Assembly: GCA_963779415.1 (NCBI GenBank) | Contig: CAVZYA010000001.1 | Coordinates: 960,001 to 1,024,000, forward strand | Reading direction: 5' to 3' | DNA length: 64,000 nucleotides | Source: an uncultured Acidobacteriota bacterium | GTDB taxonomy: Bacteria; Acidobacteriota; Thermoanaerobaculia; UBA5066 | Shown here: positions 1 to 29,378 of the stretch, in pieces | How the letters are laid out: every line of letters starts with the position of its first letter | Numbering within the stretch: position 1 is the first letter of the stretch | Notes under the pieces: model-generated | What the model was told of the DNA's origin: nothing | Seen by the model: only the letters and a program-made list of their open reading frames with translations | The model's database searches: none | Made by a program: the position numbers and the translations under genes

Positions 1-1360
1 GAAGCAGCTTCTTCAGCTTCCCGTCGGCGAAGAAGGCGATCCACTCTCCGTCCGGCGAGAAGAACGGGTTGCTCGCCCCCTCGCTTCCGGAGATGACCGC
101 GCCGTGAAGCTCCTCGAGCGACCGGAGCACGAGGTGAGAAATGCCGGTCTTTTCGTCGAGGGCCTGCATGACGAGCCAGCGGCCGTCCGCCGAGAGGGCC
201 ATGTCGGCCACGTCGTCCAGGACGAGCCGCGACCCCTCCGGCAGGGGCACCGTGAAGCGCGTGATCCCCTTCGGCGCGATCTTCGGGGCACGAGCGCGCA
301 GCGCGAGCGCCCCCGTCGCGGCCGCGAATGCGGCCGCAATCGCCCAGGAGAGATAGAGAGACTTTCTGCTCCCTCGCGTTCGACTCGCAGAAGCGTCGCG
401 ACCTACAGTGGAACTTGGCGAGGCGGTCTTTTCTTCGAAGGGTAATGGGCCGGAGGAGCTCGCCGACGCGCCGAGCTCTTCCTCGAGGGCGATCCGCGCG
501 TCCCCGATGTCGCGCAGGCGCTGCTTCACGTCACGCTGAAGGCACCGGTGCAGCAGCTCTCTCACCTTAGAAGAAACCGGCGCGCGAAGCGCGCTCCAGT
601 CCGGCTCCTTCGTCAGCAACGCGGCCAGCGTGTCGCTGACGGTCTCCCCTTCGAAGGCCCGCTTCCCCGTCAGCATCTCGTAGAGGACGCAGCCGAAAGC
701 CCAGACGTCCGTCCGCTTGTCGAGCGGCTTGCCGCGCGCCTGCTCGGGGCTCATGTACGCGGCCGTCCCGAGGATCACCCCCGCCGCCGTGGCGCGAGCC
801 GTGAGCGTCGGCGACTTCGTCTGCCCCCCGCCGCTTCCGCTCTTCTCGTTCGACGAATCGCCTTCGAAGATCTTCGCGAGGCCGAAGTCGAGGAGCTTCA
901 CCCGCCCGTCGGGCGTGACCTTGACGTTCGCCGGTTTCAGGTCCCGATGGACGATCCCCTTCTCGTGCGCCGCTTCCAGCGCCTCGGCGATCTGCTTCGC
1001 GTATGCGAGTGATTCGTCCAGCGGAAGCGGGCCCGGGACGAGTCGCTGCCCGAGGTCTTCTCCCTCGACGAGCTCCATGACGAGAAGGTGGCGGGAGGAA
1101 GAAGACGAGGACCCGGGGATTTCTTCGAAGGAGTAGAGGGTGGCGATCCCCGGATGGTTCAGGCTCGCCAACATGCGAGCCTCTCGCTCGAACCTCTGCC
1201 TTCTCTCTTCACTTTCGAAGAATTCTTCCGGCAGGACTTTCAGCGCAACGTCTCTACCGAGCCGCGTGTCCTTCGCCCGCCAGACCTCCCCCATCCCGCC
1301 CGCACCGAGGGGGCTCTGGATCTCGTACGAGCCGAGGCGGGTGCCGGCGGCGAGCGTCAA
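1..1360 (-). CDS. Receptor-like Ser/Thr protein kinase STK1 (kinase-TM-beta-propeller); 3' end runs off the window
   Basis: Not in the ORF track because it has no stop in the window. Manual translation from TTG at 1360 (GAGGAAG upstream) gives [27 protein letters not shown]...HRDLKPAN...DFGLAK...YMSPEQ, TM LYLSWAIAAAFAAATGALAL, then RFTVPLPEG...NPFFSPDGEWIAFFADGKLKKL. Confidence 0.93.
   Translation of the reverse strand, partial: MTLAAGTRLGSYEIQSPLGAGGMGEVWRAKDTRLGRDVALKVLPEEFFESEERRQRFEREARMLASLNHPGIATLYSFEEIPGSSSSSSRHLLVMELVEGEDLGQRLVPGPLPLDESLAYAKQIAEALEAAHEKGIVHRDLKPANVKVTPDGRVKLLDFGLAKIFEGDSSNEKSGSGGGQTKSPTLTARATAAGVILGTAAYMSPEQARGKPLDKRTDVWAFGCVLYEMLTGKRAFEGETVSDTLAALLTKEPDWSALRAPVSSKVRELLHRCLQRDVKQRLRDIGDARIALEEELGASASSSGPLPFEEKTASPSSTVGRDASASRTRGSRKSLYLSWAIAAAFAAATGALALRARAPKIAPKGITRFTVPLPEGSRLVLDDVADMALSADGRWLVMQALDEKTGISHLVLRSLEELHGAVISGSEGASNPFFSPDGEWIAFFADGKLKKLL
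291..462. repeat. 172-bp direct repeat, copy 1 (linker plus TM of STK1)
   Basis: By eye, identical to 3076..3247 except one C/T difference (gtcgcgacc vs gtcgtgacc). Confidence 0.9.
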
Positions 1361-1370
1361 GCGGTCTTCC

Positions 1371-4139
1371 TCATCGCGTGCACCTCGCGCGGTCGACGCC
1401 GGCAACGCCCTGGGCCGTCATGAGACTCGAGACCTGCTCCCATTCCGCGAGGCAGATCTTCTTCCCGTCGGGCGAGATCGCGAAGGTCTCCGCTACCCAG
1501 TCCGGTTCGAGCCCGGCGAGGGGCCGGCGCGTGGACGCCGTGTCCCGCCCGGGCACGAAATCCTGGGCGAAGATCCCGACGCGCCCCTTCGCGTCGACGG
1601 AGACGAATGCGATCGCCTTGCCGTCGGGCATCCACCGGGCACGGCCCGCGATCTGCTCCACCCGCCGGGTCGTGGCTCCCAGCCGGATCGAGAACGGCAG
1701 GAGCGTTCCATCCGAAATGCGGACGACCTTGACCGCGCTGTCCTCCGTCAGGCGCGCGAACGTGAAGAGCGCGTACTGGCCGTCGGGCGAGACCTCGGGC
1801 CATTCTCCGAGGCCGGAAAAGAGGATCGCCGGCTCGCTGCCGTCGGGCCGGACCTTCCAGATACCGAATTTCTTCCGATCCCCCGAGGCATAGATGACCC
1901 ACTCTCCGCCGGGCGTGGCCGTCGCGTTCTCGGCGTCGACACCGTCGTGCGTGACCTGCCGAGCCCCGCTCCCGTCGGCGTCGGCCATCCAGATCTCGAA
2001 GTTACCGGAGCGGTCCGAGCTGAAGACCAGGTGCTTTCCGTCGGGCGTCAGCGCGGGGTCGTAGTCCACCGAAGGGCTGTCCGTCAGCCGCCGGACGGCG
2101 CCGGTACGCGGCTGGAGACTCCAGACGTCGACGTTTCCGCCGCGAAGGGCCGAATAGACGATCCACTCCCCGTCGGGCGAGTACCGGGGCTGGCGGTTCA
2201 TCCCGAGCCCGCGAGTGAGCCAGACATCCGGCGCCCCGGCGCCAGCGCCCGCCACCTCTCGCAGGTTCACCCGGTTCGAGCTGACGTCGAAGACGAGGTG
2301 TCCGGGGCCCAGCACGTCGACCGCCGAGACGCGGCTCGGACTCTCGAGCACGGGAGACTGCCCTCCCGTCTCGGAGTCCATCCGCTCGATCGTGCAGGCG
2401 GCGGCTTCGAAGAGGCTCAGCACCGGCGAGACCCGCGCGAGCAGGATCTCGCGTCCCGTCCCCATCCAGACGGCCGAGGAGATCTCCGCGGAGCGCCCGG
2501 CCCCGAGGTCGCGCGTCGCGCTTCCGTCGCTCGCCACCAGGACAGGTCCGGCGTAGGCGGCCGCGCCCAGCGAATGCGGAAAGCAGACGATCCATTTCCC
2601 GTCCGGCGACCAGGCGGGCCAGTCGAACGGCACGGTCGTGGACCGGTAGATCTCGCGCGGCTCTCCGCCGTCGGCCGAACCGACCGTGAGCGCCCAGAGC
2701 TGTCGCCCTTCCTCTTTCCCTTCTCGGACCCATGCGAGCCGCCGTCCGTCGCACGACCAGGCGCCGTCGGTCGCGTTGGCGACGAGCCGCCTCGGCTCCC
2801 CTCCGAGGACGCCGACCCGGTAGAGCGAGGAGACCGCGTCTTCGCGCCGGACGAAGAGAAGGGAGGTTCCGTCGGGAGAGAAGCGCGGCCGGTCGTCCGG
2901 TCCCGACGTCAGCGGCCGCTCGTCACCGTCCGGCATCTGCTTGAGCCAGATCCGGTCCCGACCGTCCCGGTCGGAGACGAAGGCGACGAGCTTCCCGTCC
3001 GGCGAGGCGGCGGGAAACCAGTCGTGACCGGAATCGGTCAGCGGCTGCACGACGAGTGGCTGCGGCGCGGGGGCGCGAGCGCGCAGCGCGAGCGCCCCCG
3101 TCGCGGCCGCGAATGCGGCCGCAATCGCCCAGGAGAGATAGAGAGACTTTCTGCTCCCTCGCGTTCGACTCGCAGAAGCGTCGTGACCTACAGTGGAACT
3201 TGGCGAGGCGGTCTTTTCTTCGAAGGGTAATGGGCCGGAGGAGCTCGATGCACCCGCCGCGCTCATTTCCTCCAAGTCGACGCGCGCGTCGCCGATGTCC
3301 CGCAGCCTCAGCTTCGCGTCGCGCCTCAGGCACTTTCGAAGAATCTCTTTGACTTTCTCCGGCGTTTCCGCCGGCAGCGCGCTCCAGTCCGGCTCCTTCG
3401 TCAGCAACGCGGCCAGCGTGTCGCTGACCGTCTCCCCTTCGAAGGCCCTCTTCCCCGTCAGCATCTCGTAGAGGACGCACCCAAAGGCCCAGACGTCGGT
3501 TCGCTTGTCGACGGTCTTCCCCCGGGCCTGCTCCGGCGACATATACGCCGCCGTCCCGAGGATCACCCCCGCCGCCGTCGCGCGGGCCGTGAGCGTCGGT
3601 GAGTGTGTGACAGAAGGGGCAGAGCCGGGCCCGCCGTCCCCCTCGAAGATCTTCGCGAGGCCGAAGTCCAGAAGCTTCACCCTTCCATCCGGCGTCACCT
3701 TGACGTTCCCGGGCTTGAGGTCCCGGTGGACGATCCCCTTCTCGTGCGCCGCTTCCAGCGCCTCGGCGATCTGACGGGAAAGAGAAAGATATTCTTCGAG
3801 GGGGATGGGACCGGAGAGCAGCTTCTGAGCAAGATCCTCACCTTCGACGAGCTCCATCACGAGAAGGTGGCGCGAGGAAGAAGACGAGGATCCGGGGATT
3901 TCTTCGAAGGAATGGATGGCCGCGATCCCCGGATGATTGAGGCTCGCGAGCGTGCGTGCTTCGCGCTCGAAGCGGGCGACGCGGTCTTTGTCTTCGAAGA
4001 ATTCTTCCGGCAGCACCTTGATCGCGACGTCTCTCCCGAGCCGCGTGTCCTTCGCCCGCCAGACCTCCCCCATCCCGCCCGCACCGAGGGGGCTCTGGAT
4101 CTCGTACGAGCCGAGGCGGGTGCCCGCGGCGAGGCTCAT
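1371..4139 (-). CDS. Receptor-like Ser/Thr kinase STK2 with TolB/PD40-type propeller
   Basis: ORF 1371..4166, start reassigned to MSLAAGTRLG. Motifs [22 protein letters not shown], a TM helix and many SPDG/WSPDG repeats. Confidence 0.95.
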   Translation of the reverse strand: MSLAAGTRLGSYEIQSPLGAGGMGEVWRAKDTRLGRDVAIKVLPEEFFEDKDRVARFEREARTLASLNHPGIAAIHSFEEIPGSSSSSSRHLLVMELVEGEDLAQKLLSGPIPLEEYLSLSRQIAEALEAAHEKGIVHRDLKPGNVKVTPDGRVKLLDFGLAKIFEGDGGPGSAPSVTHSPTLTARATAAGVILGTAAYMSPEQARGKTVDKRTDVWAFGCVLYEMLTGKRAFEGETVSDTLAALLTKEPDWSALPAETPEKVKEILRKCLRRDAKLRLRDIGDARVDLEEMSAAGASSSSGPLPFEEKTASPSSTVGHDASASRTRGSRKSLYLSWAIAAAFAAATGALALRARAPAPQPLVVQPLTDSGHDWFPAASPDGKLVAFVSDRDGRDRIWLKQMPDGDERPLTSGPDDRPRFSPDGTSLLFVRREDAVSSLYRVGVLGGEPRRLVANATDGAWSCDGRRLAWVREGKEEGRQLWALTVGSADGGEPREIYRSTTVPFDWPAWSPDGKWIVCFPHSLGAAAYAGPVLVASDGSATRDLGAGRSAEISSAVWMGTGREILLARVSPVLSLFEAAACTIERMDSETGGQSPVLESPSRVSAVDVLGPGHLVFDVSSNRVNLREVAGAGAGAPDVWLTRGLGMNRQPRYSPDGEWIVYSALRGGNVDVWSLQPRTGAVRRLTDSPSVDYDPALTPDGKHLVFSSDRSGNFEIWMADADGSGARQVTHDGVDAENATATPGGEWVIYASGDRKKFGIWKVRPDGSEPAILFSGLGEWPEVSPDGQYALFTFARLTEDSAVKVVRISDGTLLPFSIRLGATTRRVEQIAGRARWMPDGKAIAFVSVDAKGRVGIFAQDFVPGRDTASTRRPLAGLEPDWVAETFAISPDGKKICLAEWEQVSSLMTAQGVAGVDRARCTR
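3076..3247. repeat. 172-bp direct repeat, copy 2 (linker plus TM of STK2)
   Basis: Matches 291..462. Confidence 0.9.
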
Positions 4140-4176
4140 CGAATGCACGACATGTTCATGCAACACGATCGGCCGG

Positions 4177-6870
4177 TCACCGGGCCGTCTCCCCGCGCGC
4201 GCGCCGCTCGAGCTCGCCCCGCCAGCCGAAGACCATGTTGATCCGGGTGATCGGGCTCACCGCCTCGGCATTCCGGATGAAGAAGAAATGTCTGCCGTCC
4301 GGCCCGACCTCGTAATACCTGCCGGACTCGTAGCAACCGCATGAGAGGATCCGCTCGGGCAGCCCAGCCGAAAACGCGTGGGCCGTGTCGACCGGCACGC
4401 GCATGAGTCGGTCGCCGTTCAGGTAGAACAGCTCCCGCCCGTCCCGCGACCATTCCGGACGGACGCCCCCATCCGTCGAAATCTGCCACTTTCCTCCGGG
4501 CCCCGGGAAGGGACGGACGTAGATCTCGCTCCGGCCCGATTCATTGGACTCGTAAGCGAGGAAGCGTCCGTCGCGCGAGAATTCCGCGAACCATTCCCGG
4601 AAGGGGGTCCGCTCGAAAGGGGTGGGCTTGCGATCCCCTTCCATCGGGAGAATCAGGATGTCGAAGCCGGTCGTCGGGTCCAGCTCGCCGAACGCCAGGT
4701 AACGGCCGTCGGGAGACCACGACGTGGGGTAGATCCAGTTTCTGCTCGTGAGCAGCTGCTCCTCCGTACCGCTCCCATCGGCGGCTCGCCAGTAGAGGCC
4801 GTAGAGACCGTTGCGGAGGGACGTGTAGACGAGACGCTTGCCGTCGGGCGTCCAGATGGGGTCGCGGTCGTCATTGTCGAACGTCGACCGCGTCAGGGTC
4901 CCCCGATCGCGGTCGAAAATCCAGATATTCCAGGTTGCACCTTCGACGGTCATGGCGAGCCGTCGCCCGTCGGGAGAAAGAGACATGTCCTCGTAGGCGG
5001 AATCTTCTGCCGCGAGCGTCGCGGCCTCACCCTTCAGATCCAGCATGACAACCCGCCTCTTGACGGCCGCGCGGGTTCGAGGCACGTAGGCGAGCAGGCC
5101 GCTTCTCGAGACGGCGAACTGCTCGATCCCGAAGTCGTCGTCGGGCATGACCTTCTCGACGAACGGGACCGGCTCGCCGAGCAGTTTCAAGCCGTCCGGG
5201 TCAAACGGCGCGGCAAGGATCGCTCCCGAGCGGCCAAAGACGAGGAATCCCGGCTCGACGTAGTGGGGATTCGTGCCCTGGGGGACGATCACCTGCGACT
5301 TGCCGGTCCTGAGGTCGAGCGCCTCAATCTGGCCCTGGCTCGCCTGGAAGCCTCGGACGCTCGTGAAGAGCAGAGCCCGCACCATGGGGAGGGCTTCGGG
5401 CTCGAAGATGTCGCCCCGAGCGGGGTCGGCTTTCACGATCTCCGGACACGCTCCACCCGCGACCGACGCCTGCAGCAATCCTCCGGTCGTCGACGGCAGG
5501 AAAATGCTTCCGTCATCGGCCCACGCGGCCCCTGCGTAGTCGGACACCTGAGCGTCGCAGACCGGCAGGGACGGCCCACCCGACACCGCCACCTTCCGGA
5601 CCCTGTTGCCGGCCGTGTACCCCAGCCACTGGCCGTCCGGAGAGAAGAACGGTCTTGCCGCTCCATCTGTCTCCGCGAGAGGCGTTGCCTCAAACGAACC
5701 GATGGAGCGCACGTAGAGCGAGGAGGCCCCGGACTCGTTCTTCGCGACGTAGGCGACCCGGGCGCCGTCTCGCGAGACGGCGAGATTCGGTACACCGTCG
5801 ACTGGAAGCGCTTGTCCTCGTGGGAGGTCGAGGCTCAGGCGAACGACGGAAACCGCGGCCGGCCGGTGCGAAAGCCGTTCGAACCATCCCGCAACGAGTG
5901 CGCCGCCAAGAACGAGTCCGACGAGGCCCGCCGCCGCCGTCCGACGCATTCGAGAGCGCGAATCGGCCGGCCCGATTGCCTTGCCGCCCGACTCGCCGAC
6001 AGCCGCCGGTGAGTCCATCAGGCTGAGGCGCGCGTCGGCAATGTCGTGGACGCGCAGCCGGACGTCCTTTTCCAGGCAGCGCTTGAGGAGGCCACGGATC
6101 CCCGGCGGAGTTGTCGCGGCGAGAATCGACCAATCCGGCTCGGCACGCAAGACCGCCGCGAGCGTGTCGGAGACGGTCTCCCCTTCGAAGGCCCTCTTCC
6201 CCGTCAGCATCTCGTAGAGCACACAACCCCACGCCCAGATGTCCGCCCGCTTGTCGACCGTCTTCCCACGCGCCTGCTCGGGCGACATGTATGCGGCAGT
6301 TCCGAGAATGACGCCGGCGGCCGTGGCACGCGCCGTCAGCGTCGGCGACTGCGTGACGGCCGCCCCCGAACCGGTCGTCGAGCCCCGGTCTCCTTCGAAC
6401 GCCTTCGCAAGGCCGAAGTCGAGCAGCTTGACCTTCCCGTCTTCGGAGACTTTGACGTTCGCCGGCTTCAGGTCCCGGTGGACGATCCCCTTCTCGTGCG
6501 CCGCCTCCAGGGCCTCGGCGATCTGCTTCGCGACAGAAAGAGATTCGTCGAGTGGAAGGGGACCGGGGACCAGCCGCTGCCCGAGGTCTTCTCCCTCGAC
6601 GAGCTCCATGACGAGGAGATGTCGACCGGAGATTTCTTCGAAGGAATAGACGGCCGCAATGCCGGGATGGTTCAGCGTGGCGAGCGTGCGCGCTTCTCTT
6701 TCGAAGCGGAGCCTTCTCTCTTCATCCTCGAAGAACTCTTCCGGCAGCACCTTGATCGCGACGTCCCGCCCGAGCCGCATGTCCTTCGCCCGGTAGACCT
6801 CGCCCATCCCTCCCGCGCCGAGGGGGGAGAGGATCTCGTAGGCGCCGAGGCGAGTGCCGGCGGTGATCAC
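4177..6870 (-). CDS. Receptor-like Ser/Thr kinase STK3
   Basis: 897-aa ORF with HRDLKPAN, DFGLAK, TM AAAGLVGLVLGGALVAGWF and PD40-like repeats. GTG start overlaps the STK4 stop (GTGA). Confidence 0.95.
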   Translation of the reverse strand: MITAGTRLGAYEILSPLGAGGMGEVYRAKDMRLGRDVAIKVLPEEFFEDEERRLRFEREARTLATLNHPGIAAVYSFEEISGRHLLVMELVEGEDLGQRLVPGPLPLDESLSVAKQIAEALEAAHEKGIVHRDLKPANVKVSEDGKVKLLDFGLAKAFEGDRGSTTGSGAAVTQSPTLTARATAAGVILGTAAYMSPEQARGKTVDKRADIWAWGCVLYEMLTGKRAFEGETVSDTLAAVLRAEPDWSILAATTPPGIRGLLKRCLEKDVRLRVHDIADARLSLMDSPAAVGESGGKAIGPADSRSRMRRTAAAGLVGLVLGGALVAGWFERLSHRPAAVSVVRLSLDLPRGQALPVDGVPNLAVSRDGARVAYVAKNESGASSLYVRSIGSFEATPLAETDGAARPFFSPDGQWLGYTAGNRVRKVAVSGGPSLPVCDAQVSDYAGAAWADDGSIFLPSTTGGLLQASVAGGACPEIVKADPARGDIFEPEALPMVRALLFTSVRGFQASQGQIEALDLRTGKSQVIVPQGTNPHYVEPGFLVFGRSGAILAAPFDPDGLKLLGEPVPFVEKVMPDDDFGIEQFAVSRSGLLAYVPRTRAAVKRRVVMLDLKGEAATLAAEDSAYEDMSLSPDGRRLAMTVEGATWNIWIFDRDRGTLTRSTFDNDDRDPIWTPDGKRLVYTSLRNGLYGLYWRAADGSGTEEQLLTSRNWIYPTSWSPDGRYLAFGELDPTTGFDILILPMEGDRKPTPFERTPFREWFAEFSRDGRFLAYESNESGRSEIYVRPFPGPGGKWQISTDGGVRPEWSRDGRELFYLNGDRLMRVPVDTAHAFSAGLPERILSCGCYESGRYYEVGPDGRHFFFIRNAEAVSPITRINMVFGWRGELERRARGETAR

Positions 6871-9464
6871 TTCAGCCCTTCCGCCAGGTAGAGGTCGGAG
6901 AGGACCCGCGCGCAGATGAAGAGAATCGTCTTTCCGTCATCGGAGAGGGCCGCGGGTGAAAGCAGGGTGATGCCTGCCGGGTCGCCTGGCATGAGCTCTC
7001 TCCAGACCTCCCGGCGCCCGGTAGCGACGTCCAGCCGGAAGACTCGCGCGGGGAAGTCCCTCGCATCGGAGCGAAAGAAGAGAAACCGTCCGTCGGCGGT
7101 GAACCGCAGCGGCCTGTCGCCGGGCTTGAGACCCGGAATCGGGCTTGAGGGTCCGCCGTCCAACGATGAAAGGGCGACGCCCTCCGGCGTCGGGGTCACG
7201 AGCGACTTGCCGTCCGCCGAGAGGAGCCTTGCCACGACTCCCTCCGGGGTGACGGGCCTGGCCGCTCCTCCCGCGAGGTCCTGAACGAAGACGCGCGGCG
7301 GCCGCCCCGGTTCGTGGCCGGCGAAGACGATCCGCTTGCCGTCCGGAAGGAAGGCCCCGAACGGCCCGCTGACATGCTCGATCGCGTCCTTCGGAAACGC
7401 CTTCGGCTCTCCGGCTCCGGTCGGCAGCAGCATCATTTGCGAGGGCGTCGAGCGGAGGAGGGCGGTCAGCACCCATTTTCCGTCCGGGGAGAGCGCCATC
7501 GCGGCCCCCTCGCCGAGCCGCACGGGCGCGGAGCCATCCAGCTTGCGCAGGTAGACGGAGTACCCCGGACCGCCGGCGTCACCCTGCTCCGTGAAGACGA
7601 CCGTCTTCCCGTCCGCGGAGAGGATCGGGCCATACGACCACTCGAGTCCCGAGAGGTCCCGCTCCTTCGTCTGTCCGGGGAGGAGGCCGAGGAATCCGAG
7701 CCGCGCATTGCTCTCGACGAACAACACCCTTCCGTCGCGCGAGATATCCTGCAGCGTCATCCCGGAGGGAGTGGTCGCGACCGGGCGCTGGCGTCCCGAA
7801 AGGGTCACGGCGTAGAGCGCGCGGGCGCTCCCGGCTTGTGCCGCCGTGAACCAGATCTCGTCGCCGGAGACCGACCAGGCAATCCCCTGCGCGCTCTCCC
7901 ATCCGGTCGAGAGAGTCTTCTTCGTTCCCGACCGATCCACGATCGCAACGGAGCCGCGGTCGTCCCCGAAGAGGGGGTGGTCGAAAAACGCCACCGCGTC
8001 TCCCTTCGGAGAGATCCGCGGGTAGCTGATCCAGCCGGTCGTCTCGTAGAGCACCTTTCCGACCGGGAACTCCAGCTGGTAACGCCACCGGGGCGCGCGG
8101 ACGACCGCCATCGCGCTGCCGTCCGGAGACCAGTCCGCGTGACCCACGTCCTCGAGAAGCTCGCGCGGCGCGCTCCCGGAAAGGGACGTCTGGGCGAGCG
8201 TGCCGATCCTCGCGTACCCCGTGGAGAAATGGAGAAGGTCGAGGACGAGCATCTCTCCCTTGCTCGAGATGGACTCGACCTGGCCCGGGGGAAGAGCCAG
8301 TCGGAGCGACTCGGGACTCTCGGCCCGCACGGAGTAGAGCTGGGGTTTCTGGGCGCCTTCCCAGGACGCCGCATAGACGATCATCTGTCCGTCCGGAGCG
8401 AATCGGGCCGACCAGACGGGCCCCCGGCCATAGGTGAGCCTCTTGAAGGAGGGAGGAGCCGCCGGCGCCCTCTTCCAGACCACCCGGCCGGCGAAGAGCC
8501 CGGCCGCGATCGCGATCGCGATCGCGACGATGCCTGCAAGTCGAAGCCTTCCGGCGCGCGGGGAGGCCTTGCCCGTAGCGACCGCCGTGGCGCTCGCGCC
8601 CGTTCCCGAGCTTCCGGACAACGCTTCGAGAGCGAAGGCGACGTCGTGCGCCGAGTGGAAGCGCTGCTCGGGATTCTTCTCGATGCAGTGCCGGACGATC
8701 CGCTCGAGCCCGGGCGAGACGCTCTGGTTCGTGAGGGAGAGATCCGGCGGCTCCTCCCGGAGGATCGCCGAGATCGTCTCGGCCGCCGATTCGCCGTGGA
8801 ACGCTCTCCGTCCCGAGAGCATCTCGTAGAGGATGGCGCCGAAGGAGAAGATGTCCGACCGGGCGTCGGCCGCCTTCCCCTTGACCTGCTCGGGCGACAT
8901 GTACCCGAGCGTCCCCATCACGACGCCGGGCTCCGTCCCGGCGGAGGCCGTCGGCAGGTTGGTCGTAGGGCCCGCCACTTCCTGATGCGTCAGCTTCGCG
9001 AGACCGAAGTCGAGGATCTTGAGACGGCCGTCCCGCGTCACGAAGAGGTTCTCCGGCTTCAGATCGCGATGGACGATCCCTTTCTCGTGCGCCGCGGAGA
9101 GCCCATGGGCGATCTGCAACGCGTAGTCGAAAGCCTTTCGATGCGGCAGCTTCCCGCCCGAGAGGGCCGAGCGGAGCGTCTCGCCCTCGAGGAGCTCCTG
9201 GACCACGTAGGGCGCGCCGCCGTGCTGGCCGATGTCGTAGACGGCCGTGATGTTCGGGTGATTCAGGATCCCCGCCGACCGGGCCTCCTGCTCGAAGCGC
9301 CGCAGGCGATCGGCGTCCTGGGAGAGTGAGGCCGGGAGCACCTTGATGGCCACCTCGCGGCCGAGCCGCGGATCCTTCGCCCGGTAGACCTCCCCCATCC
9401 CCCCCGCGCCGATCTGGCCGAGGATTTCGTACGGGCCGAGACGCGTCCCCGGGGCGAGAGTCAC
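6867..9464 (-). CDS. Receptor-like Ser/Thr kinase STK4
   Basis: ORF 6867..9485, start reassigned to GTG at 9464 (MTLAPGTRLG). [34 protein letters not shown], propeller begins PSFKRLTYGRG. Confidence 0.95.
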   Translation of the reverse strand: MTLAPGTRLGPYEILGQIGAGGMGEVYRAKDPRLGREVAIKVLPASLSQDADRLRRFEQEARSAGILNHPNITAVYDIGQHGGAPYVVQELLEGETLRSALSGGKLPHRKAFDYALQIAHGLSAAHEKGIVHRDLKPENLFVTRDGRLKILDFGLAKLTHQEVAGPTTNLPTASAGTEPGVVMGTLGYMSPEQVKGKAADARSDIFSFGAILYEMLSGRRAFHGESAAETISAILREEPPDLSLTNQSVSPGLERIVRHCIEKNPEQRFHSAHDVAFALEALSGSSGTGASATAVATGKASPRAGRLRLAGIVAIAIAIAAGLFAGRVVWKRAPAAPPSFKRLTYGRGPVWSARFAPDGQMIVYAASWEGAQKPQLYSVRAESPESLRLALPPGQVESISSKGEMLVLDLLHFSTGYARIGTLAQTSLSGSAPRELLEDVGHADWSPDGSAMAVVRAPRWRYQLEFPVGKVLYETTGWISYPRISPKGDAVAFFDHPLFGDDRGSVAIVDRSGTKKTLSTGWESAQGIAWSVSGDEIWFTAAQAGSARALYAVTLSGRQRPVATTPSGMTLQDISRDGRVLFVESNARLGFLGLLPGQTKERDLSGLEWSYGPILSADGKTVVFTEQGDAGGPGYSVYLRKLDGSAPVRLGEGAAMALSPDGKWVLTALLRSTPSQMMLLPTGAGEPKAFPKDAIEHVSGPFGAFLPDGKRIVFAGHEPGRPPRVFVQDLAGGAARPVTPEGVVARLLSADGKSLVTPTPEGVALSSLDGGPSSPIPGLKPGDRPLRFTADGRFLFFRSDARDFPARVFRLDVATGRREVWRELMPGDPAGITLLSPAALSDDGKTILFICARVLSDLYLAEGLK

Positions 9465-9465
9465 G

Positions 9466-12117: not shown

Positions 12118-14691
12118 CGCGCCCCCTCCACGAGAAAAAGATGCGACACCATCCGTCGACAGGCGTACGCGTAGTTCCTGCCGTCGTCGGTGAAGACGAA
12201 CGGTCCGACGCTCAGGACCCCGGTCAGGTCCGCGGGACCGATCTTCATCAGCGGCCCGCGCTTCCCCGTCGCGACCTCCAGCCGCTCGATGCGCGCCGGG
12301 ACTTCGCCGCTTCGGGTGACGAGAAGGGAGCGGCCCTCCGGGCTCCATCGGATGACGGAGTCGTCGGAAGCCGATCCGGGCACGGGCCGAGGCTCGCCCT
12401 CTTCGGACGGATAGAGCATGAGGGCGCCGCCGTTCGCCGTGACGAGGATCTGCCGACCGTCCGGCGAGACGAAAGCCTGATTCGTCCCTTCCGGAGTCAC
12501 GGGGCGGGGCTTGCCGCCCGCGATCTCCTGCACGTAGCAGCGGACGCCCTTGCCCTCCTCGTGGCCGCAGACGACGATCCTCTTGCCGTCCGGGAAGAAC
12601 TGCCCCGACTCGTAGCTGACGAGGCCGCCGCGCTCGAGTCGGCGCGGCTCGCCGGCACCCGTCGGGTAGAGCATGAGTTGCGGAGGGCGTCGTCGGAACG
12701 GCCGCCAGCGCCCACTTCCCGTCGCGGGAAAGGTCCAGGGCAGCCCCTTCGCCGAGACGCACGACGGGCGACCCGTCCGTCTGTCGCAGGCAGACCGCAT
12801 AGTTCACCCCGACACTCCCGCTCTCTTCCATGAAGAGAAGCGTCCTGCCGTCCGGGGTCAGCGCCACGGGGTCGGAGAGGTCGAGCCAGGAGAGGTCCCG
12901 CTCGCGCGCCTGCCCGGGCGCGAGGGCCGGCATCTCCCGGAAGAAATCGTCCCGTGTCGCGAGCCAGCGCCCGTCACCGCGAATGTCGTGAATCGTCAGG
13001 CCGCCGGCGCTTTCGAGCGCTGTCCGGCGCTTGCCCGAGAGGCTGACCGCATAGACACGGAAGTTGTTGTAGGCGGTCCCCGCGGAAAACATGACCTCGT
13101 CCCCCTCCGGCGACCAGGCCAGACCCTCCTCGCCCCAGTAACCCTCCGAAAGGATGGTCTTCTTTCCCGCGAGGTCCACGACGGCGACCTCGCCGCGATC
13201 GTCGTACTTGAAAGGGTGCTCGAAGAACGCGATCCGGTCCCCGCGCGGCGAAAAACGCGGGTCGCTGAAGTAGCCGCCCGTCTCGCAGAGAACCTTCCCG
13301 GCAGGGAACTCCAGCCGGTCCTTCCCGCCGACGTCGCGAATCACGGCGAGGTCCGCCCCGTCCGGAGACCAGTCGGCCTCGCGCACCCCGTCGCGCATCT
13401 CCCGGGGGGCGCCTCCTTCCAACGGCATCCGCGCGAGCGTCCCTTCGAAGAGGCTGTGCGCCCTGTAATGCGCGCGGATGAGGACGGCCAGCTCCCCCCG
13501 GGACGAGATGGAGAGCAGATGGCCGCCGGGCAGCAGCCCGCGGGGGCTCGCACCCGGATAGTCCGAGCGAATCGAGAAAATCTCCGGCGTGTTGCCGGAC
13601 GACGCCGCGCTGTAGACGACGGTCTTTCCGTCCGGGGCGAGCCGGGCGTTGAAGATCGGCTCCTGCCGGAACGTGAGCTGCCCGAAGGACGGGACGGCTG
13701 CGATCGATCTCTTCCCCCGCCACTGCCCGACGGCATACGAGAGGGCGGCGGCGAGGAGAGCCAGGGCGACGGCGGCCGCCGGCAACCACCGCCGGCCGCC
13801 ACGGGGCGACGCCGGTGTGGCCGCGCGGCCGGTAGAGGAGCTTCCCGCGAGCGCCTCGAGGTCGAACGCGAGGTCGCGAGCCGACTGGAAGCGCTCCTCC
13901 GGCTTCTTCTCCAGACAGTGCCGCAGGAGCCGGTCGAGCTCGGGGGAGATCTTCGCGCCCGAGACGTCCGGCTCCGCCGGCTCCTCCTTCAGGATCGCGC
14001 TCATCGTCTCGACCGCCGACCCGCCCTTGAATGCCCGCCGGCCGGTCAGCATCTCGTAGAGGACGCATCCGAATGCGAAGATGTCCGACCGCGCGTCGGC
14101 CGCCTCCCCTTCACCTGCTCGGGCGCCATGTAACCGAGGGTCCCGAGGAGAGTCCCGGCGTCCGTGGCCTTCGCGAGCGTCGGCGAGTTCGTGTCGTCCG
14201 CCCTCCGCGACCAGCCGCTGCTTGGCGAGCCCGAAGTCGAGGATCTTCACGCGCCCGTCCGTCGTGACGAAGAGGTTCTCGGGCTTGAGGTCCCGGTGGA
14301 CGATCCCCTTCTCGTGCGCCGCCGCGAGGCCGCGGGCCATCTGCACGGACCAGTCGAGGGCCTTGCGCGTCGCGGGACGCCCCGCCGCCAGGGCCTGCCG
14401 CAGCGTCTCGCCTTCGAGGAGCTCCATGACGAGGATGTGCCGCCCCCCGCTTTCTTCGAAGGAATAGATCGCCGCGATGTTGGGATGGTTCAGCGCGGCC
14501 AGCAGCTTCGCCTCTCTCTCGAGCCGCTGCCTCTTCTCTTCACTTTCGAAGAACTCTTCGGGCAGCACCTTGACCGCGACGTCGCGGTCGAGACGGGTGT
14601 CCTTGGCCCTGTAAACCTCTCCCATTCCCCCCGCGCCGATCGGGGCGAGGACTTCGTAGGCGCCGAGGCGCGTGCCGGGAGCGAGCGTCAC
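12114..14691 (-). CDS. Receptor-like Ser/Thr kinase STK6, frameshifted in this sequence (about 3 indels)
   Basis: GTG start MTLAPGTRLGAYE. The activation segment GTLLGTLGYMAPEQ lies out of frame between compensating indels near 14200 and 14108. The C-terminus QLMLYPTGAGEP...LVEGAR is in another frame after about 12685. Confidence 0.88.
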
Positions 14692-17286
14692 CGCAGTCCC
14701 TCGACGACGTAGAGGTCGGACAGTTTCCGGCCGTACGAGAACGCCCAGCTCCTTCCGTCCCGCGTGACGTGCGTACCGAAGACGTCGACGATGCCCGTCG
14801 GGTCGGCGGGGACGAGATCCTTGTAGGGCTCCGCCTGGCCGGTCGCAAGGTCGAGCCGAAAGATCCTCGCCGGGAGGTCTCTTCCCCGCCGCACCCAGAT
14901 CGTCCCGTCCTTCGCGGCCGAACCCAGAACGATGTCGTCCGCCAGGATCCCCGGCACGGGCATGGGCTCGCCGCCGTCGAGCGACTGAAGGAAGGCCTTT
15001 CGCTCCGGCCCGATCGTGAGGAATCGCAGACCGTCGACCAGGCCCGTTCCGTTCGGCACCCGGTGGCCCTCGGGCGTCAGCGGCTTCGGCGCCCCCCCTT
15101 CGGAGTCGAGGAGGTAGGCGCGGTTGTCGTGCCCCGGCTCGGACGCCGTCATCAGGATTCGGCGGTTGTCGCCCAGCCACGCCGCCCCACGAACCCGGAG
15201 ATTCCCGAGCGGGAGCACCTTCGGCTCCCCGGGACCGGTCGGATAGATCGCGAGCTGCTGGTCGCCCGTCGGATGCACGATTGCGAGGACGCGCTTGCCG
15301 TCCGGGGAGAGCGCGAGCGCCTCGCCCTCCCCGAGACGGACGGCCGGCGAGCCGTCCGTGCCCCGGAGGAAGACCGAGTAGCCCGGCCCTCCCCCCTCGC
15401 CCGACTCGGTGAAGAGCACCGACCGGCCGTCCTGGGACAGGTCAGCGAGGAGGCTCCAGTCGAACCACGAGAGGTCGCGTTCGGCCGGATCCGCCGGCCC
15501 GCGCGTGACGACGCCGACCCGGATGAGGTCGTGCGTCATCAGGACGCGACCGTCCCGGGAGACGTCCTGAAGGGTCATGGAGCCCGCCCCGACGAGGAGG
15601 ACCCGGCTTCGCCCCGACGGCGCCACGGCACGAAGCACGCGGTTGCCGCCCGTCTCTGCCGCCGTGAACCAGATCTCCGAGCCGTCGGGCGACCACGCCA
15701 GCCCATCGGCGCTCGCGTACATGGGTGTCAGGATCGACTTCCTTCCCGACAGGTCGACGACGGCAACGGCGCCCCCGTCGTCGTTGCCGACGGGGTGGTC
15801 CAGGAAGGCGATCCGGTCTCCGCGCGGCGAGAAGCGCGGGTCGCCGATCCAGCCCGTCGTCTCGTACGAGGACCTTTCCGATCGGGTACTCGAGCCGCCG
15901 CCGGCCCGAGGCCCGGCGGACGACGGCGAGGTCCTTGCCGTCCGGCGCGAAATCCGCGAACTCGACCTCCTCGAGGATCTCGCGCGGCGCGCCGCCGCCC
16001 GTCGACGGCCGTGCGCGCGAGCGTTCCGACCCGCGTGAAGGCTCCGGAGAACCTCGAGTCGAGCGCGACGGCCATGTCGCCCGACGACGACGACGGAGAG
16101 GACGTCCGCGCCCTTGAGCCCGAACGGACGCGAGTCCGGCCCGTCGGACCGCCCGACGAAGATCTCCTCGGCGCCTCCGTCCCAGGCGGCGGAGTAGAGG
16201 ACCGACTGGCCGTCCGACCCGAAGCGGGCGTACCAGATGACGCCGCGTCGAAACGTGAGCTGGCGGAAGGAGGGCGGCGGCCGATGACCCGACCTCAGCG
16301 ACGGCGACGTAGGCGAGCGCCGGCCCCGGCGAGCGCCGCGACGACCAGAGCGCCGGCGAAGAGGCGCCTCGACGGCCGCGGCCGCGGCGCGACGCTCGTC
16401 GCCGCCGCCTCGGCCGCGCCGGAGAGACCGGAGAGCGCCTCGAGGTCGAACGCGAGGTCGCGCGCCGAGTAGAAGCGCTCCTCCGGGTTCTTCTCGAGGC
16501 AGTGCCGCACGATCCGCTCGAGCCCGGGCTGGACGTTCTTGTTCGTCGCGGAAAGGTCCGGCGGCTCCTCGCGCAGGATCGCCGAGATCGTCTCGGCCGC
16601 CGAGTCGCGGTGGAACGCGCGCTGTCCCGACAGCATCTCGTAGAGGATCGCGCCGAACGAGAAGAGGTCCGAGCGCTGGTCGGCGGGCTTGCCCTTCACC
16701 TGCTCGGGCGACATGTAGCCCAGCGTCCCCATCACGACGCCGGGCTCCGGTGCCGGCCGTCGCCGTCGGCAGGTTCGTCTGCGGACCGCCGCGCGCGCTC
16801 GGCCTGCGTCAGCTTCGCGAGGCCGAAGTCGAGGATCTTGACCCGCCCGTCGTTCGTCAGGAACAGGTTCTCGGGCTTCAGATCCCGGTGGACGATCCCC
16901 TTCTCGTGCGCGGCGGCGAGGCCCCTGCGCGATCTGCACCGCGTAGTCGATCGCCTTGCGCACCGGCGAGCGCGCCGCCCGACGATCCGCGCGCGCAGCG
17001 TCTCGCCCTCGAGCAGCTCGGTCACGATGTAGGGCGCGCCGTCGTGCGTGCCGAGGTCGTAGACCGCCGTGATGTTCGGGTGGTTCAGCGCGCCCGCCGC
17101 CTGCGCCTCCTGCTCGAAGCGCCGCAGACGGTCCGCGTCCTGCGAGTACGACGCCGGCAGGACCTTGATCGCGACGTCGCGCTTCAGCCGCTCGTCGCGC
17201 GCGCGGTAGACCTCGCCCATCCCGCCCGCGCCGATCGGCGCGAGGATTTCGTAGGGGCCGAGGCGGGTGCCGGAGGCGAGCGTCAT
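14688..17286 (-). pseudogene. Receptor-like Ser/Thr kinase STK7, multiply frameshifted (pseudogene or sequencing errors)
   Basis: Start [13 protein letters not shown] at 17286. Kinase, TM and propeller pieces are spread across ORFs 16732..19392 (end), 16295..16963, 15728..16075 and 14688..15722. Many single-base indels between about 15720 and 17000. Confidence 0.8.
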
Positions 17287-19874
17287 CTCAGCCCTTCGAC
17301 GACGTAGAGCGTGCTGCGCTGGAGGATGTAGCGTGCGGCCATGCGCTTGCCGTCGTCGCTGAACCGGATCGACGAGCAGTCGACGCCCACGTAGCCCGCG
17401 GGGCTGGCCGTCTTCCACGGCTGCCTCTTCCCGCTCGCGGCGTCGAGGGTCCACACATCGACCGGGAAGGCTCCGGGCCGCGTCACTAGGAACCGGCCGT
17501 CGGGGCGCCATTGGGTCAGGACCTCGCCGTCCTCGAGGCCGGCGACGCGCCGCACCGGCGCGTCCGGCTTTGCGAAGTCGAAGATCGCCCACCCACCCTT
17601 CTCGCGCGCGAGGAAGCTCCGGCCATTCGGGCTCAGGAGCGGCCAGGTCTCGAGGCCCGTGACGCCTTCCAGCGTGAGGGGCTTCGGGGCGTTCCCGTCG
17701 AGGCCCAGCGACCAGACCCGGTCCTCCTTCTCCCCTTCCTGGCCGATGAAGACCAGGCTCTGGCCGTCTTTCGCGAACGAGACGGACTTGATGCTGCGGA
17801 TCCCGTGCGCCGGAAGCTCGCGCGGAACGCCGGTCCCGGTCGGATAGAGCACCCAGCGCGGCGCCGGCTTGTCGAGCCAGGCCGCCGCGAGCGTTCCATC
17901 CGGCGAGAGCGCGCCGTATCCGGCGCTCTTGCCGAGAGGCGTCGCGTGCCCTCCGGAGGACGGGCGCAGGAACAGGTCGTAGCCGCCGGGATCGCCCTCT
18001 TCCTCCTCGAAGAGCAGCGTCTTCCCGTCGGAAGAGGTGTCGAGAAGGTAGCTCCACGTCCGCCAGGAAAGGTCGAGCGGCTGAACCTGCCCCTCGGCCA
18101 ACGAGAGCAGCCCGCCACGCATCTCCTCGCGGCTCATGAGGACCCGGCCGTCCGGCGCGACGTCGTGGAGGTGGAGACCGCCCGCCTGGGTGAAGACGCC
18201 GCGCTCCTTTCCCGAGAGGTCCACGGCGTAGAGGGCGCGGTTCAGGATATGCGTTCCGGCGGTGAACCAGATCTCCTGCCCCCGCCACGCCAGGCCCCGG
18301 AGAGTTCCGTAGTCCTTCGACACGAACCGCGTCTTGCCGGAGGCGACGTCGAGGACCGCGATGCGGCCCGCATCGTCGCCCGCCGCCGGATGATCGACGT
18401 ACGCGAGGAGCGACCCGTCGGGAGAGAACCGGAGATCCCCGATCCACCCGGCCGACTCGACGCGGACCCTGCCGGGTGGGTAGTCGAGAAGGGACCGTCC
18501 GCCCGCGGCACGCACGACGGCGAACTCGGACTTCGGCGCCCACGCCGCCTGGAGAACGCCGCCGAGGATCGCCTTCGGAGCGAGGTCGCCGCCGAGGGCC
18601 GACCGGGCGAGCGTCCCCTCGAACTGCCACGTGTCCGCCACCTTGCTCTTGAGCCGCAGGACGAGCTCTCCCGCACGGGACAGATCGAGCAACTGGACGT
18701 CGGTCTGGCCGAGTGGCCTTTCCTTGGGATCGACGATCGGCGTCGCGAAGAGCTGCCACGGCTCTCCCTGCCAGCTCGCGTCGTAGATGACGTCCTGGCC
18801 GCCGGGCGCGAAGCGCGCCTTCGCGATGCGTCCCTGGCGAAACGAAACCTGGTGGAAGACGGGCTGCTCGTGGCGGCCCAGGTGAACGGCTCCCGCCAGC
18901 CATGCGGCCAGAGCGGCGACGAGGACGGCGGCCGCGCCCAGGCCGGACCACGTCCAGCGGTCTCCTCTCGGACGAACCTTCTGCTTCCCTCCGTCGACGC
19001 CGGAGATCGTCGAGATGGCCTGAAGGTCGAAGGCGACGTCCTTCATCGACTGGAAGCGGTTCTCGGGCGACTTTTCGAGGCAGTGGAGAACGACGCGCTC
19101 CAGCGCCGGCGGCATCTGGCCCTTCGTGACGACGAGCGCTGCGGGATCGTCGTGAAGGATGGCGTTCATCGTCTCGACGGCCGACTCCCTTCCGAACGCC
19201 TTCCGCCCGCTCAGCATTTCGTAGAGGACGGCCCCGAAGCCGAAGATGTCGCTGCGGGGATCCGCGCTCTCGCCCCGCACCTGCTCCGGGCTCATGTAGC
19301 CGACGGTCCCCATGACGACGCCGGCCTCGGTGTGTAGGCTTCCCCCGGCCTCCGTCGGGACGCTCGTCTGCGAGCCGCTCGGACCGGACCACTTCGGCAC
19401 CTGTTTCGCGAGTCCGAAATCCAGCAGCTTTACCCGACCGTCCCGGCCAAGGAAGATGTTCTCCGGCTTCACGTCCCGGTGGACGATTCCCCGATGATGG
19501 GCCGCGGCGAGACCCTCGGCCATCTGCGACGCGAGTTCTGCGGCCTTCTTCGGCGCGAGGGCGCCCGCCCGCAGGCGGTCGCGAAGCGATTCGCCCTCGA
19601 GTAGCTCCATCACGGCGTAGGTGTGCTCCCCCTCCCTCCCGAAATCGTAGATACCGAGAATGTTCGGGTGGTTGAGGGCGGCCACGGCCTTGGCCTCGCG
19701 CTCGAACCGTGTCAGGAGATCCCCGTTCTCCGCCAGGGAGGGAGGCAGCACCTTGATGGCGACGAAGCGGTCGAGCTTCGGGTCGCGGGCCTTGTAGACC
19801 TCGCCCATGCCCCCCGCACCAACCAGTGAGTTTATTTCGTACGGCCCAAGCCTCGCACCGGCTGTCAACGTCAT
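17283..19874 (-). CDS. Receptor-like Ser/Thr kinase STK8, first gene of the array
   Basis: 863-aa ORF with [38 protein letters not shown]. Propeller begins [11 protein letters not shown]. Confidence 0.95.
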
Positions 19875-20021
19875 TTTGAGCCCACCACCCTGAGACTGAG
19901 TCTAACCGGCAAACCTGCTTGTCCCTATGCGGTACGAACTCCAGACCGGGATCCCGGGGGGCATTGCGGCGGAGGGCGAGATGAGGGAGGCTCTCCGGGC
20001 CCGAAGACGAGGAGGCACCCT

Positions 20022-29000: not shown

Positions 29001-29378
29001 CCCCGTCCCGACCCAGACGACGTTCGGGTCCGACGGGGCGATCGCGATCGAGCCGATCGACTGCGCCGGCTGGTCGTCGAAGACCGGCATCCAGTGGACG
29101 CCTCCGTCCGTCGTCTTCCAGACGCCCCCGGAGGCGGCTCCGGCGTAGGCGACGTTGGGATCGCCCGGAACGCCCGCGACGGCGCTGACGCGGTTGCCGG
29201 GGGGGCCGATGAAACGGTACGCGAGCGCCGCGAACGGATCGGCTGCTTTCGCGGACGCCGTGTCCGGTTTCGACGGCTCGGTCGCGGCCGCCGCTCCCGT
29301 CGCAAGAGCCGCCGAGAGGATCAACGAAAACATCGCGGGGAGCGGACGGACGGCTTTCACTGTCTTTCTCACTTTCAT
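26004..29378 (-). CDS. Secreted VPS10/sortilin-like BNR-repeat protein (putative glycosyl hydrolase)
   Basis: Signal peptide and many Asp-box motifs (TTDGGVHW, STDAGKSW, SRDGGTTW, SFNDGGSW). Confidence 0.85.
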   Translation of the reverse strand: MKVRKTVKAVRPLPAMFSLILSAALATGAAAATEPSKPDTASAKAADPFAALAYRFIGPPGNRVSAVAGVPGDPNVAYAGAASGGVWKTTDGGVHWMPVFDDQPAQSIGSIAIAPSDPNVVWVGTGETFIRSDVSLGNGIYRSTDAGKSWTRMGLEKTGRIGRVVIDPRNSDVVFAAALGTCYGPQPERGVYRTTDGGKSWERVLFVDENTGASDLAMDPTNPRTLFAGMWQVDIKTWGRKSGGPGSGIFVSRDGGTTWKRLNGHGLPEPPLGKIAVAVAESNPRRVYALIETGARGSLWRSNDGGAEWKLVNHSRLLNERPHYYTRMLVMPDNDREVYFPSNGMGATFDGGETTTEIGWGGDNHDIWADPKIPSRMMIGNDGGVQISTTRGRQWSFVRLPIGQMYHVTTDNRIPYRVYGQMQDDGSMRGPSNNPGGYGIPPALWTSTAGCETGWATPDPVNADVVWGGCYAGVVERFDAKTGETRTVSVWPERTMGASAGEIKLRMNWTFPIAISPHDHDTVYVGSQYVHATSDGGQTWKTISPDLTLNDRSMMGDSGGLTVDNLSVEYAGVVFSIAESPIEKGLIWAGTNDGLVQVTRDGGKSWTNVTPNIRGLPPKGTVGSVEPSRFDAGTCYVSVDFHQVDGRDPYIYRTADYGKSWTAIASNIPKSPLSYVHVVREDPFRRGLLYAGTENALYVSFNDGGSWESLQGKMPQAPVYWLTVQEHFHDLVVGTYGRGFYILDDVGPLEQLTDAVRGSAVHLFEPRPAYRFLPVSQPNLAPSGTSRGKNPPYGAIFNYWLKDPVKVAAEEKPGEEDVTEPPDGKKIEVTILDAAGKTIRTLKGTGKAGMNRVTWDLRHEPTLDVRLRTTPAGNRHVWEEKRFRGKEARGIFYYGIETPRKGPLVPPGTYTVKLSVEGKELSRTVEVRKDPNSAGTPADIAAASTLSLSLYDDINAAAGMINRIEWSRKQIEAIRKMMKASEAAAADVAAVDEVETKIRSVEDRLLQPTLAEADVKSFRGPLQLYLKLVWLQAESGTGGGDVSGNADFAPTAAELEVYRLLSGQLAEVRRDFEELYAKTIPAFNDTVRTKGFPPLMIVKEPEKPRPAPKAEEDDEDGDWDPGRG

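Follow-up and report, generated by a model that had tools for sequence, protein, structure and literature searches.

A tandem array of receptor-type Hanks kinases with predicted beta-propeller ectodomains in a Thermoanaerobaculia genome, with signs of exchange between kinase and sensor modules

Proteins that join a Ser/Thr kinase, a single transmembrane (TM) helix and PD40 repeats are among the largest uncharacterized receptor families in soil bacteria. PD40 is one of the domains most often tethered to prokaryotic Ser/Thr kinases (PMC2877116). In 'Candidatus Solibacter usitatus', Ser/Thr kinases form a prominent family of paralogs, for which positive selection was not found (PMC3174227). In Planctomycetota, single-pass kinases that carry periplasmic WD40 or TPR arrays have undergone lineage-specific expansion, which is attributed to duplication and/or recombination (PMC11032199), and adjacent, tandemly duplicated kinase genes were noted in Myxobacteria (Perez et al. 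2008, as cited in PMC11032199). For PknB and PknD, activation through dimerization has been described (PMC6213207). Here, we analyzed a window of 64,000 nucleotides (C1:960001-1024000, the whole stretch of DNA under study) from an uncultured soil bacterium of the Acidobacteriota, class Thermoanaerobaculia, in which positions 1 to 19874 are filled by a tandem array of eight receptor-like kinase genes, designated A to H. No description of such arrays in Thermoanaerobaculia was found in the full-text literature searched, although tandem arrangements might be described in the supplements (kinase trees and tables) of PMC3174227 and PMC11032199.

The array is genuine, and it is a fairly ordinary lineage-specific expansion of a gene family. 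We regard it as likely, at roughly two chances in three, that the locus is an array of receptor-type Hanks kinases generated by tandem duplication and modular exchange, in the manner set out below.

The array and its predicted receptors

The window belongs to a 4.36-Mb genome with 68% GC in 3 contigs, a metagenome-type assembly with a completeness of 92%. Its first 19,874 positions carry, on the minus strand, eight co-oriented kinase genes of about 2.6-2.8 kb each, with no gene between them. The ORFs (open reading frames), tblastn and the reading of the junctions agree on this arrangement, which bears out the original prediction of eight consecutive same-strand genes over about 20 kb without an intervening gene. 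The genes are listed below from the first to the last, together with the region that precedes H; ectodomain classes I to III and the further cluster members K1 to K6 are described in the following paragraphs.

17283-19874, minus strand: H, which opens the array; 863 aa; kinase at aa 12-275, TM helix at about aa 313-331, predicted class II double propeller
14688-17286, minus strand: G, class II; its ATG overlaps the H stop (ATGA); at least 8 frame switches in the assembly
12114-14691, minus strand: F, class II; GTGA overlap with G; indels at about 14199 (+1), 14105 (-1) and 12687 (+1)
9466-12117, minus strand: E, class I; ATGA overlap with F; intact; Pfam matches
6867-9464, minus strand: D, class II; GTG start 1 nt after the E stop, with an alternative TTG at 9485
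4177-6870, minus strand: C, class I; GTGA overlap with D; kinase in the clade of A, B, C and K5
1371-4139, minus strand: B, class III ectodomain (four canonical PD40 repeats) on an A-like kinase, linker and TM helix; Pfam PD40 at 1.2e-50
1-1360, minus strand: A, class I; TTG start 10 nt after the B stop; continues off the window to C1:958577
19875-20021, no strand: intergenic region between H and a divergent aminotransferase gene; 147 nt, the sole room for a promoter of the array

Read from the TTG at 1360, A has 928 aa; the ORF as listed begins at an upstream TTG (1405) and has 942 aa. When the seven junctions were read base by base, four of them (H/G, G/F, F/E, and D/C) proved to be 4-nt ATGA or GTGA overlaps. 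The spacers at the remaining three were 1 nt (E/D), 37 nt (C/B), and 10 nt (B/A), and thus no junction exceeds 37 nt. The promoter scan of the array returned 0 promoter-like sites, and no sigma-70-like site was seen in the 147-nt region before H. The terminator scan returned 9 terminator-like sites across the array against 9.5 expected, which is no excess, and the Rfam and tRNA scans of the array gave no match. Because stop and start codons overlap and neither promoters nor terminators are in excess, the eight genes are predicted to be co-transcribed as an operon.

Both Pkinase and PD40 were found above their cut-offs by Pfam in all six proteins scanned (A in part, B, C, D, E, and H), with 159-174 bits for Pkinase (cut-off, 31.7) and 29-169 bits for PD40 (cut-off, 20.9); in H, PD40 was accompanied by Pkinase at 5.5e-50. 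DPPIV_N and WD40-type matches were also returned, and NHL was absent from all six. The GxGGMGxV motif served as the anchor for locating the start of each kinase. The motifs HRD[LV]KPxN and DFGLA[KR], the VAxK lysine (VAIKV in K5), and S/APEQ are present in each of the 12 intact members of the cluster. These motifs, of which retention of the first two had been predicted, are also readable in F and G. The nearest solved kinase domains are those of PknB (1.7e-55), PknA (1.6e-46), StkP (9e-45), and PknE (9.5e-43). Judged by motif content, the kinases should be catalytically competent.

The same 12 proteins each contain a single hydrophobic 19-mer within aa 304-354 (mean Kyte-Doolittle value, 1.6-2.7) and no second one. 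This TM helix lies about 20-60 residues past the kinase, with segments rich in R/K on its N-terminal side, a pattern that would place the kinase in the cytoplasm and the propellers in the periplasm. The size of about 2.6-2.8 kb and the order of kinase, TM helix and propeller that had been predicted for every complete gene thus hold, with the correction that F and G are not single ORFs as assembled.

From the TM helix onward, the proteins are predicted to be all-beta, with ectodomains of about 530-570 aa. Identity matrices and trees divide the ectodomains into three classes: class I (A, C, E, K1, and K3-K6), class II (D, F, G, and H), and class III (B and K2). Identity is 27-45% within a class (69% for the recent pair K3/K4) and about 16-25% between classes. 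Two ectodomains, those of H and E, were modeled with AlphaFold (AF2) on alignments of database homologs, with a pLDDT of 92.8 and a pTM of 0.88 for H and a pLDDT of 94.0 and a pTM of 0.89 for E; the models contain about 41-48 strands. Their top matches in Foldseek are tandem double-propeller proteins. VIA-align returned matches to single six-bladed propellers; in it, residues 258-530 of E superimposed on TolB (2ojh) with a Z score of 27.8 and a root mean square deviation (rmsd) of 2.7 Å over 253 aligned residues. The scores of this segment against TolB propellers (Z of 27.8, 26.3, and 24.8, at 17-19% identity) lie about 4-7 Z above the next fold, and the other N- and C-terminal strands of E fit propellers of the sialidase, NHL and PknD types at Z of about 20. 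For H, the top group is tied at Z of 20.6-21.6 and includes both the PknD sensor (1rwi, Z of 21.0) and TolB (Z of 20.6). On these models, each sensor is predicted to consist of two six-bladed propellers, one nested in the other, of which at least one is TolB/PD40-like. The TolB likeness may hint at peptide or envelope-protein ligands, which is speculation.

Homologs of the class I ectodomain are abundant: clustered at 50% identity, they number 24,341 with a limit of E<=1e-30 and 142,266 with one of E<=1e-3. Most are proteins of about 880 aa with the same layout. The database labels of these relatives are generic ('protein kinase' or 'Tol biopolymer transport system component/predicted Ser/Thr protein kinase'), and the protein database attaches PF26549 and PF26550 to these ectodomains.

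Module exchange and turnover of array content

Identity among A, K5, B, and C is 77-89% in the kinase and 21-34% in the ectodomain, and the ectodomains are spread over two classes. The contrast is sharpest in B, whose kinase is 84% identical to that of A and whose ectodomain is 24% identical to that of A and 44% identical to that of K2. Read in this way, B looks like a mosaic gene. The DNA identity between A and B is patchy, at 67-97%, over the first 1.1 kb and then falls to about 45% directly past the TM helix. Synonymous divergence (dS) between A and B is 0.074 in the linker and TM helix, compared with 0.66 in the kinase.

The maximum-likelihood (ML) trees tell the same two stories. In the kinase tree, A, K5, B, and C form a clade with support of 100/100, and forcing B together with K2 costs 79 log-likelihood (lnL) units (P value of the approximately unbiased test [p-AU], 2.6e-43). 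In the ectodomain tree, each class is supported at 100%, B groups with K2 at 100/100, and forcing A, B, C, and K5 together costs 276 lnL units (p-AU, 2.7e-50). Because the kinase and ectodomain trees conflict so strongly, the kinase and sensor modules have demonstrably recombined, and exchange would have moved the kinase module, with its linker and TM helix, independently of the ectodomain module.

A further case was found on metagenome contig L012 (16528-19659), where an E-type kinase (83% identity to the E kinase) is joined to a class I ectodomain that shares only 39% identity with that of E. This chimera is a second, independent example of a module swap, outside this genome. On the same contig, the ectodomain of the H ortholog is 90% identical and its kinase 74-75% identical. 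The gene junctions and 5' ends in the array share exact words of 14-66 nt, which are plausible substrates for unequal crossing-over. Among orthologs, the ratio of nonsynonymous to synonymous divergence (dN/dS) lies at 0.11-0.28 in the ectodomains and at 0.13-0.29 in the kinases (8 comparisons), and both parts are thus under purifying selection. The idea of a conserved output with a variable input fits these data well: the catalytic motifs are kept, the ectodomains are 16-45% identical (K3/K4, 69%), and the modules have evidently recombined.

Array content also differs between relatives. Genome G005, from the same genus, and the metagenome contigs L013 and L014 have the order H-F-E(-D), with G missing. 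G001 has the order E-H-D, after which comes a B-like kinase whose ectodomain is not orthologous, and L012 has H and D with two other members between them. In G003, a genome of the same genus with 99% completeness, an aminotransferase that is 84% identical to the one beside H is followed by six kinases, just two of which are orthologous to members here, namely G (84%) and K1 (81%). In G002, G003, and G004, the locus has this aminotransferase as its conserved anchor. Among seven genomes of the genus, ectodomain orthologs were found in three for H, two for A, one for B, and none for C, for which no ortholog above 40% identity occurs in any of the seven; these genomes are 65-99% complete, and absences in the poorer ones are weak. 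The array is thus not invariant, and the dynamic repertoire of the original prediction is upheld by the differences in content and order at a shared anchor within one genus.

At the level of the order, 3-5 such genes within approximately 20 kb are present in at least 9 of the 20 relatives, drawn from three families (among the 150 listed of 939 matches); with the unpublished genomes G013 and G018 set aside, the count is at least 7 of 18. At nine distant soil-metagenome loci, there is one propeller kinase each, and one of them (L033) adds a second kinase without a propeller match. Arrays are a trait of this lineage.

The array does continue beyond position 1, as was expected from the window, and 'at least eight' members proved to be an undercount. 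Within C1:931664-979901 (48 kb), there are 14 kinase-propeller genes, ten of them on one strand. A is followed by genes for a small PDZ lipoprotein, a Sel1-repeat protein, the kinases K6 and K5, and formate-tetrahydrofolate (formate-THF) ligase (fhs, identified from its translation without a Pfam scan), all on the strand of A. K4 and K3 follow on the opposite strand, and K2 and K1 lie upstream. Counted over the whole 4.36-Mb genome, kinase-propeller genes number about 24 and Hanks kinase loci about 70. About 14 of the 24 sit in 1.1% of the genome length, and their clustering at the array exceeds chance.

Frame breaks and competing explanations

F and G, located through tblastn matches to D, H, and the intact 862-aa homolog P0121, are interrupted in the assembly. 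In a DNA alignment of F with its intact 866-aa ortholog in G005 (83% identity, 6 gaps), three single-base indels were located. They garble 31 residues of the activation loop and shift the last 190 or so codons. Each indel lies beside a G/C run, and no stop interrupts the shifted tail of F, whose GC content at third codon positions (GC3) is 0.85. The GC3 frame map (90-nt windows) is noisy even in intact genes and was put to supporting use only. G was mapped on P0121 with the protein as a guide, since its DNA alignment to the neighbor in G001 is too divergent (63%) for the placement of indels. Between about 16975 and 15858, its reading frame changes at least 8 times, which splits the gene into nine in-frame pieces. 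These match P0121 at 74-93% identity and together span aa 1-862 of it, apart from short stretches at the breaks that did not align.

Six long housekeeping genes, with a total of about 6,500 codons (four aminoacyl-tRNA synthetase frames, RpoB, and RpoC), are unbroken, and a high uniform rate of assembly error is therefore excluded. These intact genes cannot separate local consensus errors from real mutations. Outside the array, at least six more kinase loci of this genome are likewise split over frames. Split Hanks kinase loci, in two to four frames, lie at C1:1040629-1042143, C2:66218-68660, C2:1025289-1027340, C2:1318529-1320326, C2:1610770-1611493, C2:1683219-1685344, and C2:77312-79899. The breaks appear to be concentrated in the kinase family, which could reflect either trouble with the assembly of repeats or real decay. 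For F and G, local consensus errors in GC-rich, paralog-rich DNA are the probable cause, and true pseudogenes are the clearly less probable one. In the case of G, consensus errors are preferred because the pieces show no substitutional decay alongside the 8 indels.

The interpretation that we favor runs as follows. The array would have arisen by tandem duplication at a recombination hot spot, where homologous exchange would shuffle kinase modules (with linker and TM helix) and ectodomain modules separately and so preserve modularity. As the junctions suggest, a single transcript would start in the 147-nt region before H, and translation of the genes would be coupled. Each ectodomain may bind a distinct periplasmic or envelope ligand. 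By analogy with PknB and PknD, ligand-driven dimerization through the ectodomain or the TM helix would lead to trans-autophosphorylation of the activation loop, and the signals would converge on shared cytoplasmic substrates. The output is probably funneled into a common network, because the hits to FHA and PP2C_2 all lie away from the array.

Several points weigh against this interpretation. Two of the eight genes in the window are frame-broken as assembled, and if the breaks are real, these two yield no full-length receptor. The groups that were tested in the trees were defined once the identity matrices were known, which makes the AU P values post hoc. The periplasmic placement of the sensors derives from hydropathy and the positive-inside pattern, and the structures are predictions. 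As for partner genes, the genome has 10 FHA hits and 1 PP2C_2 hit, none of them in or beside the array.

The most serious competitor, which we nevertheless consider unlikely, is that the array is the debris of neutral birth and death at a hot spot prone to duplication, in which largely redundant members decay, F and G are true pseudogenes, and the repertoire has no coordinated function. The concentration of breaks in the family would be expected from such decay, with F and G frame-broken, at least six other kinase loci split and six housekeeping genes intact, and so would the fast turnover of membership within the genus. However, dN/dS of 0.11-0.29 across both domains points to purifying selection, and all 12 intact members retain the catalytic motifs. 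The pieces of G match the intact homolog of another species at 74-93% identity over its full length, without substitutional decay. The single-base indels of F beside G/C runs, with the tail left open (GC3, 0.85), suit consensus errors in repeat-rich DNA of 70-72% GC better than old pseudogenes. A conflict or immune repertoire, in which the proteins sense non-self or phage in the manner of plant receptor-like kinase (RLK) clusters or PD-T4-6 defense kinases, is improbable. The PADLOC models PD-T4-6, mad6, and MkoA did match all four kinases scanned, with E values down to 1e-89, and the fast turnover of gene content together with module shuffling at one locus would suit such a role. Nearly all of these matches are nevertheless confined to the generic kinase domain (approximately residues 1-365), and none enters the ectodomain; they were not accepted as evidence of defense. 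Orthologous ectodomains are conserved rather than diversifying (dN/dS, 0.11-0.28), and the array contains no effector, nuclease, toxin, or mobile-element gene. Its neighbors (PDZ lipoprotein, Sel1-repeat protein, formate-THF ligase, aminotransferase, and phosphoketolase) offer no defense-island context, and the family is enormous (24,341 clusters at E<=1e-30) and mostly solitary elsewhere (9 distant loci). The non-self signals that the original prediction had listed among the possible inputs thus find no backing in the purifying selection on the ectodomains or in the reach of the PADLOC matches. The combinatorial heteromers that it had suggested found no backing either.

That dispersed paralogs were joined, collapsed or expanded by the assembler is the least probable explanation and, in our view, a very remote one. 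The assembly is of the metagenome type, in 3 contigs with 92% completeness, G holds an indel-dense stretch of 1.1 kb, and the adjacencies H-G, G-F, C-B, and B-A are without support from independent contigs. Against this, the order H-F-E(-D) recurs on independent contigs (G005, L013, and L014), H-D is found in G001, and L012 has D inside its array. The G ortholog of G003 occurs at the same anchor, all seven junctions show the clean stop/start geometry of real genes, and arrays of 3-5 such genes recur in at least 9 of 20 relatives. A more ambitious version of the favored interpretation is doubtful, with perhaps a slim chance of being right. It holds that the locus would be a cassette system for receptor diversity, with 8-10 coupled receptor kinases in one polycistronic unit, the junctions and 5' modules acting as recombination handles, sensors re-assorted within populations, and mixed dimers integrating many envelope ligands. 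If true, it would make the locus a bacterial counterpart of plant RLK clusters.

Neighboring genes and comparison with known systems

The two genes that follow A beyond the window were placed as follows.

Window -2911 to -1420 (C1:957089-958580; L002:15089-16580), minus strand: PDZ lipoprotein (PDZ_2, 7e-7) and Sel1 gene (Sel1, 6e-38)

The ATG of the PDZ lipoprotein gene overlaps the stop of kinase A, and its frame stays open for about 400 nt into the Sel1 gene, which uses another frame. The pair could be two genes that overlap or, alternatively, one PDZ-Sel1 fusion with a frameshift. Both proteins were considered as conserved accessories of the array and dropped, as no counterpart was present in any relative locus examined.

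On the H side, the array is flanked by a phosphoketolase gene (XFP domains, 5e-177; window 22406-24874, plus strand) and a gene for a 1149-aa Sortilin/BNR-repeat protein (26004-29453, minus strand). Farther along, an unusual fusion (33833-35809, minus strand) joins a Metalloenzyme superfamily domain (5e-36), which is phosphopentomutase/alkaline-phosphatase-like, to an HATPase_c_2 domain (4e-27) of the anti-sigma-factor-kinase type. A fatty-acid beta-oxidation cluster occupies 39101-45178 on the minus strand and comprises a TetR regulator, a thiolase, a FadB-type enzyme (enoyl-CoA hydratase/3-hydroxyacyl-CoA dehydrogenase), and a long acyl-CoA dehydrogenase of the ACAD9/VLCAD type. An AMP-binding ORF (acyl-CoA synthetase-like; 45258-46511, minus strand) covers only profile positions 222-384, with no Pfam match to the N-terminal half in three upstream minus-strand frames, and this gene may be truncated or broken. 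An ABC transporter-like operon at 47989-52483 on the plus strand encodes, according to the translations, a lipoprotein binding protein, a double ATPase and two Ala/Gly/Leu-rich permeases. The stretch at 50-52 kb has 74% GC and a strongly negative AT-skew and coincides with this operon; because membrane-protein coding coincides with it, the composition looks like a consequence. A tRNA-Arg(CCT) gene lies at 56963-57039.

Among described proteins, PknD of Mycobacterium tuberculosis has the plan that is predicted for the array proteins, namely an N-terminal Hanks kinase, one TM helix and an extracytoplasmic six-bladed propeller. Its sensor (1rwi) aligns with the H ectodomain at a Z score of 21.0 (rmsd, 2.7 Å; 229 aligned residues) and with that of E at 19.9, at about 10% identity. 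However, PknD has one NHL-repeat propeller, whereas the array proteins have two predicted nested propellers that Pfam assigns to PD40 and not to NHL, and PknD is a single gene, whereas the array kinases are tandem genes. The array proteins share the fold and logic of PknD, not its sequence family. As is predicted for E (residues 258-530, Z of 27.8), TolB has a six-bladed PD40 propeller. Unlike TolB, the array proteins have no TolB N-terminal domain and no Tol-Pal context, are anchored in the membrane and fused to a kinase, and carry a predicted second propeller. Their ectodomains are fold and repeat relatives of TolB, not orthologs. PknB, PknA, PknE, and StkP supply the closest solved kinase domains, and all Hanks motifs are present in the array kinases; PknB and StkP, however, sense muropeptides via PASTA repeats, which the array proteins lack.

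Large expansions of membrane kinases resembling the one here are reported in the literature cited above for Planctomycetota ('Candidatus Uabimicrobium amorphum' and Gemmataceae), Myxobacteria, and 'Candidatus Solibacter usitatus'. Like those predicted here, the Planctomycetota kinases combine a cytoplasmic Pkinase domain with a periplasmic propeller and stem from duplication and/or recombination, with some duplicates adjacent. Here, the sensors are PD40/TolB-like double propellers and not WD40/TPR arrays, the phylum differs, the stop/start-overlapping run is unusually long, and module swapping at the TM boundary is documented. Plant RLK clusters also consist of tandem single-pass receptor kinases with conserved kinases, divergent ectodomains and presence/absence variation. 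The likeness is one of analogy only, as their ectodomain folds are different, the arrangement here is polycistronic, and no diversifying selection was found.

In the light of these systems, the original prediction overstated its case when it ranked the array as the best candidate for an undescribed system. PD40-tethered kinases, expansions in Acidobacteria, tandem duplicates and propeller kinases of Planctomycetota are all in print (PMC2877116, PMC3174227, and PMC11032199), and arrays occur in at least 9 of 20 relatives. The locus should be a useful starting point for studies of how sensor diversity is generated and kept up in bacteria with large kinomes, as well as for picking ectodomains for ligand screens. 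It is a compact natural experiment, with 14 paralogs at one hot spot, three sensor classes, a breakpoint exactly at the boundary between TM helix and ectodomain, and different sets in relatives at the same anchor. Compared with the systems above, the array is of a kind that is already known and reveals no new kind of system; what is particular here is the long stop/start-overlapping run, the double TolB-like propellers and the clean evidence, from a conserved hot spot, that modules were swapped at the TM boundary.

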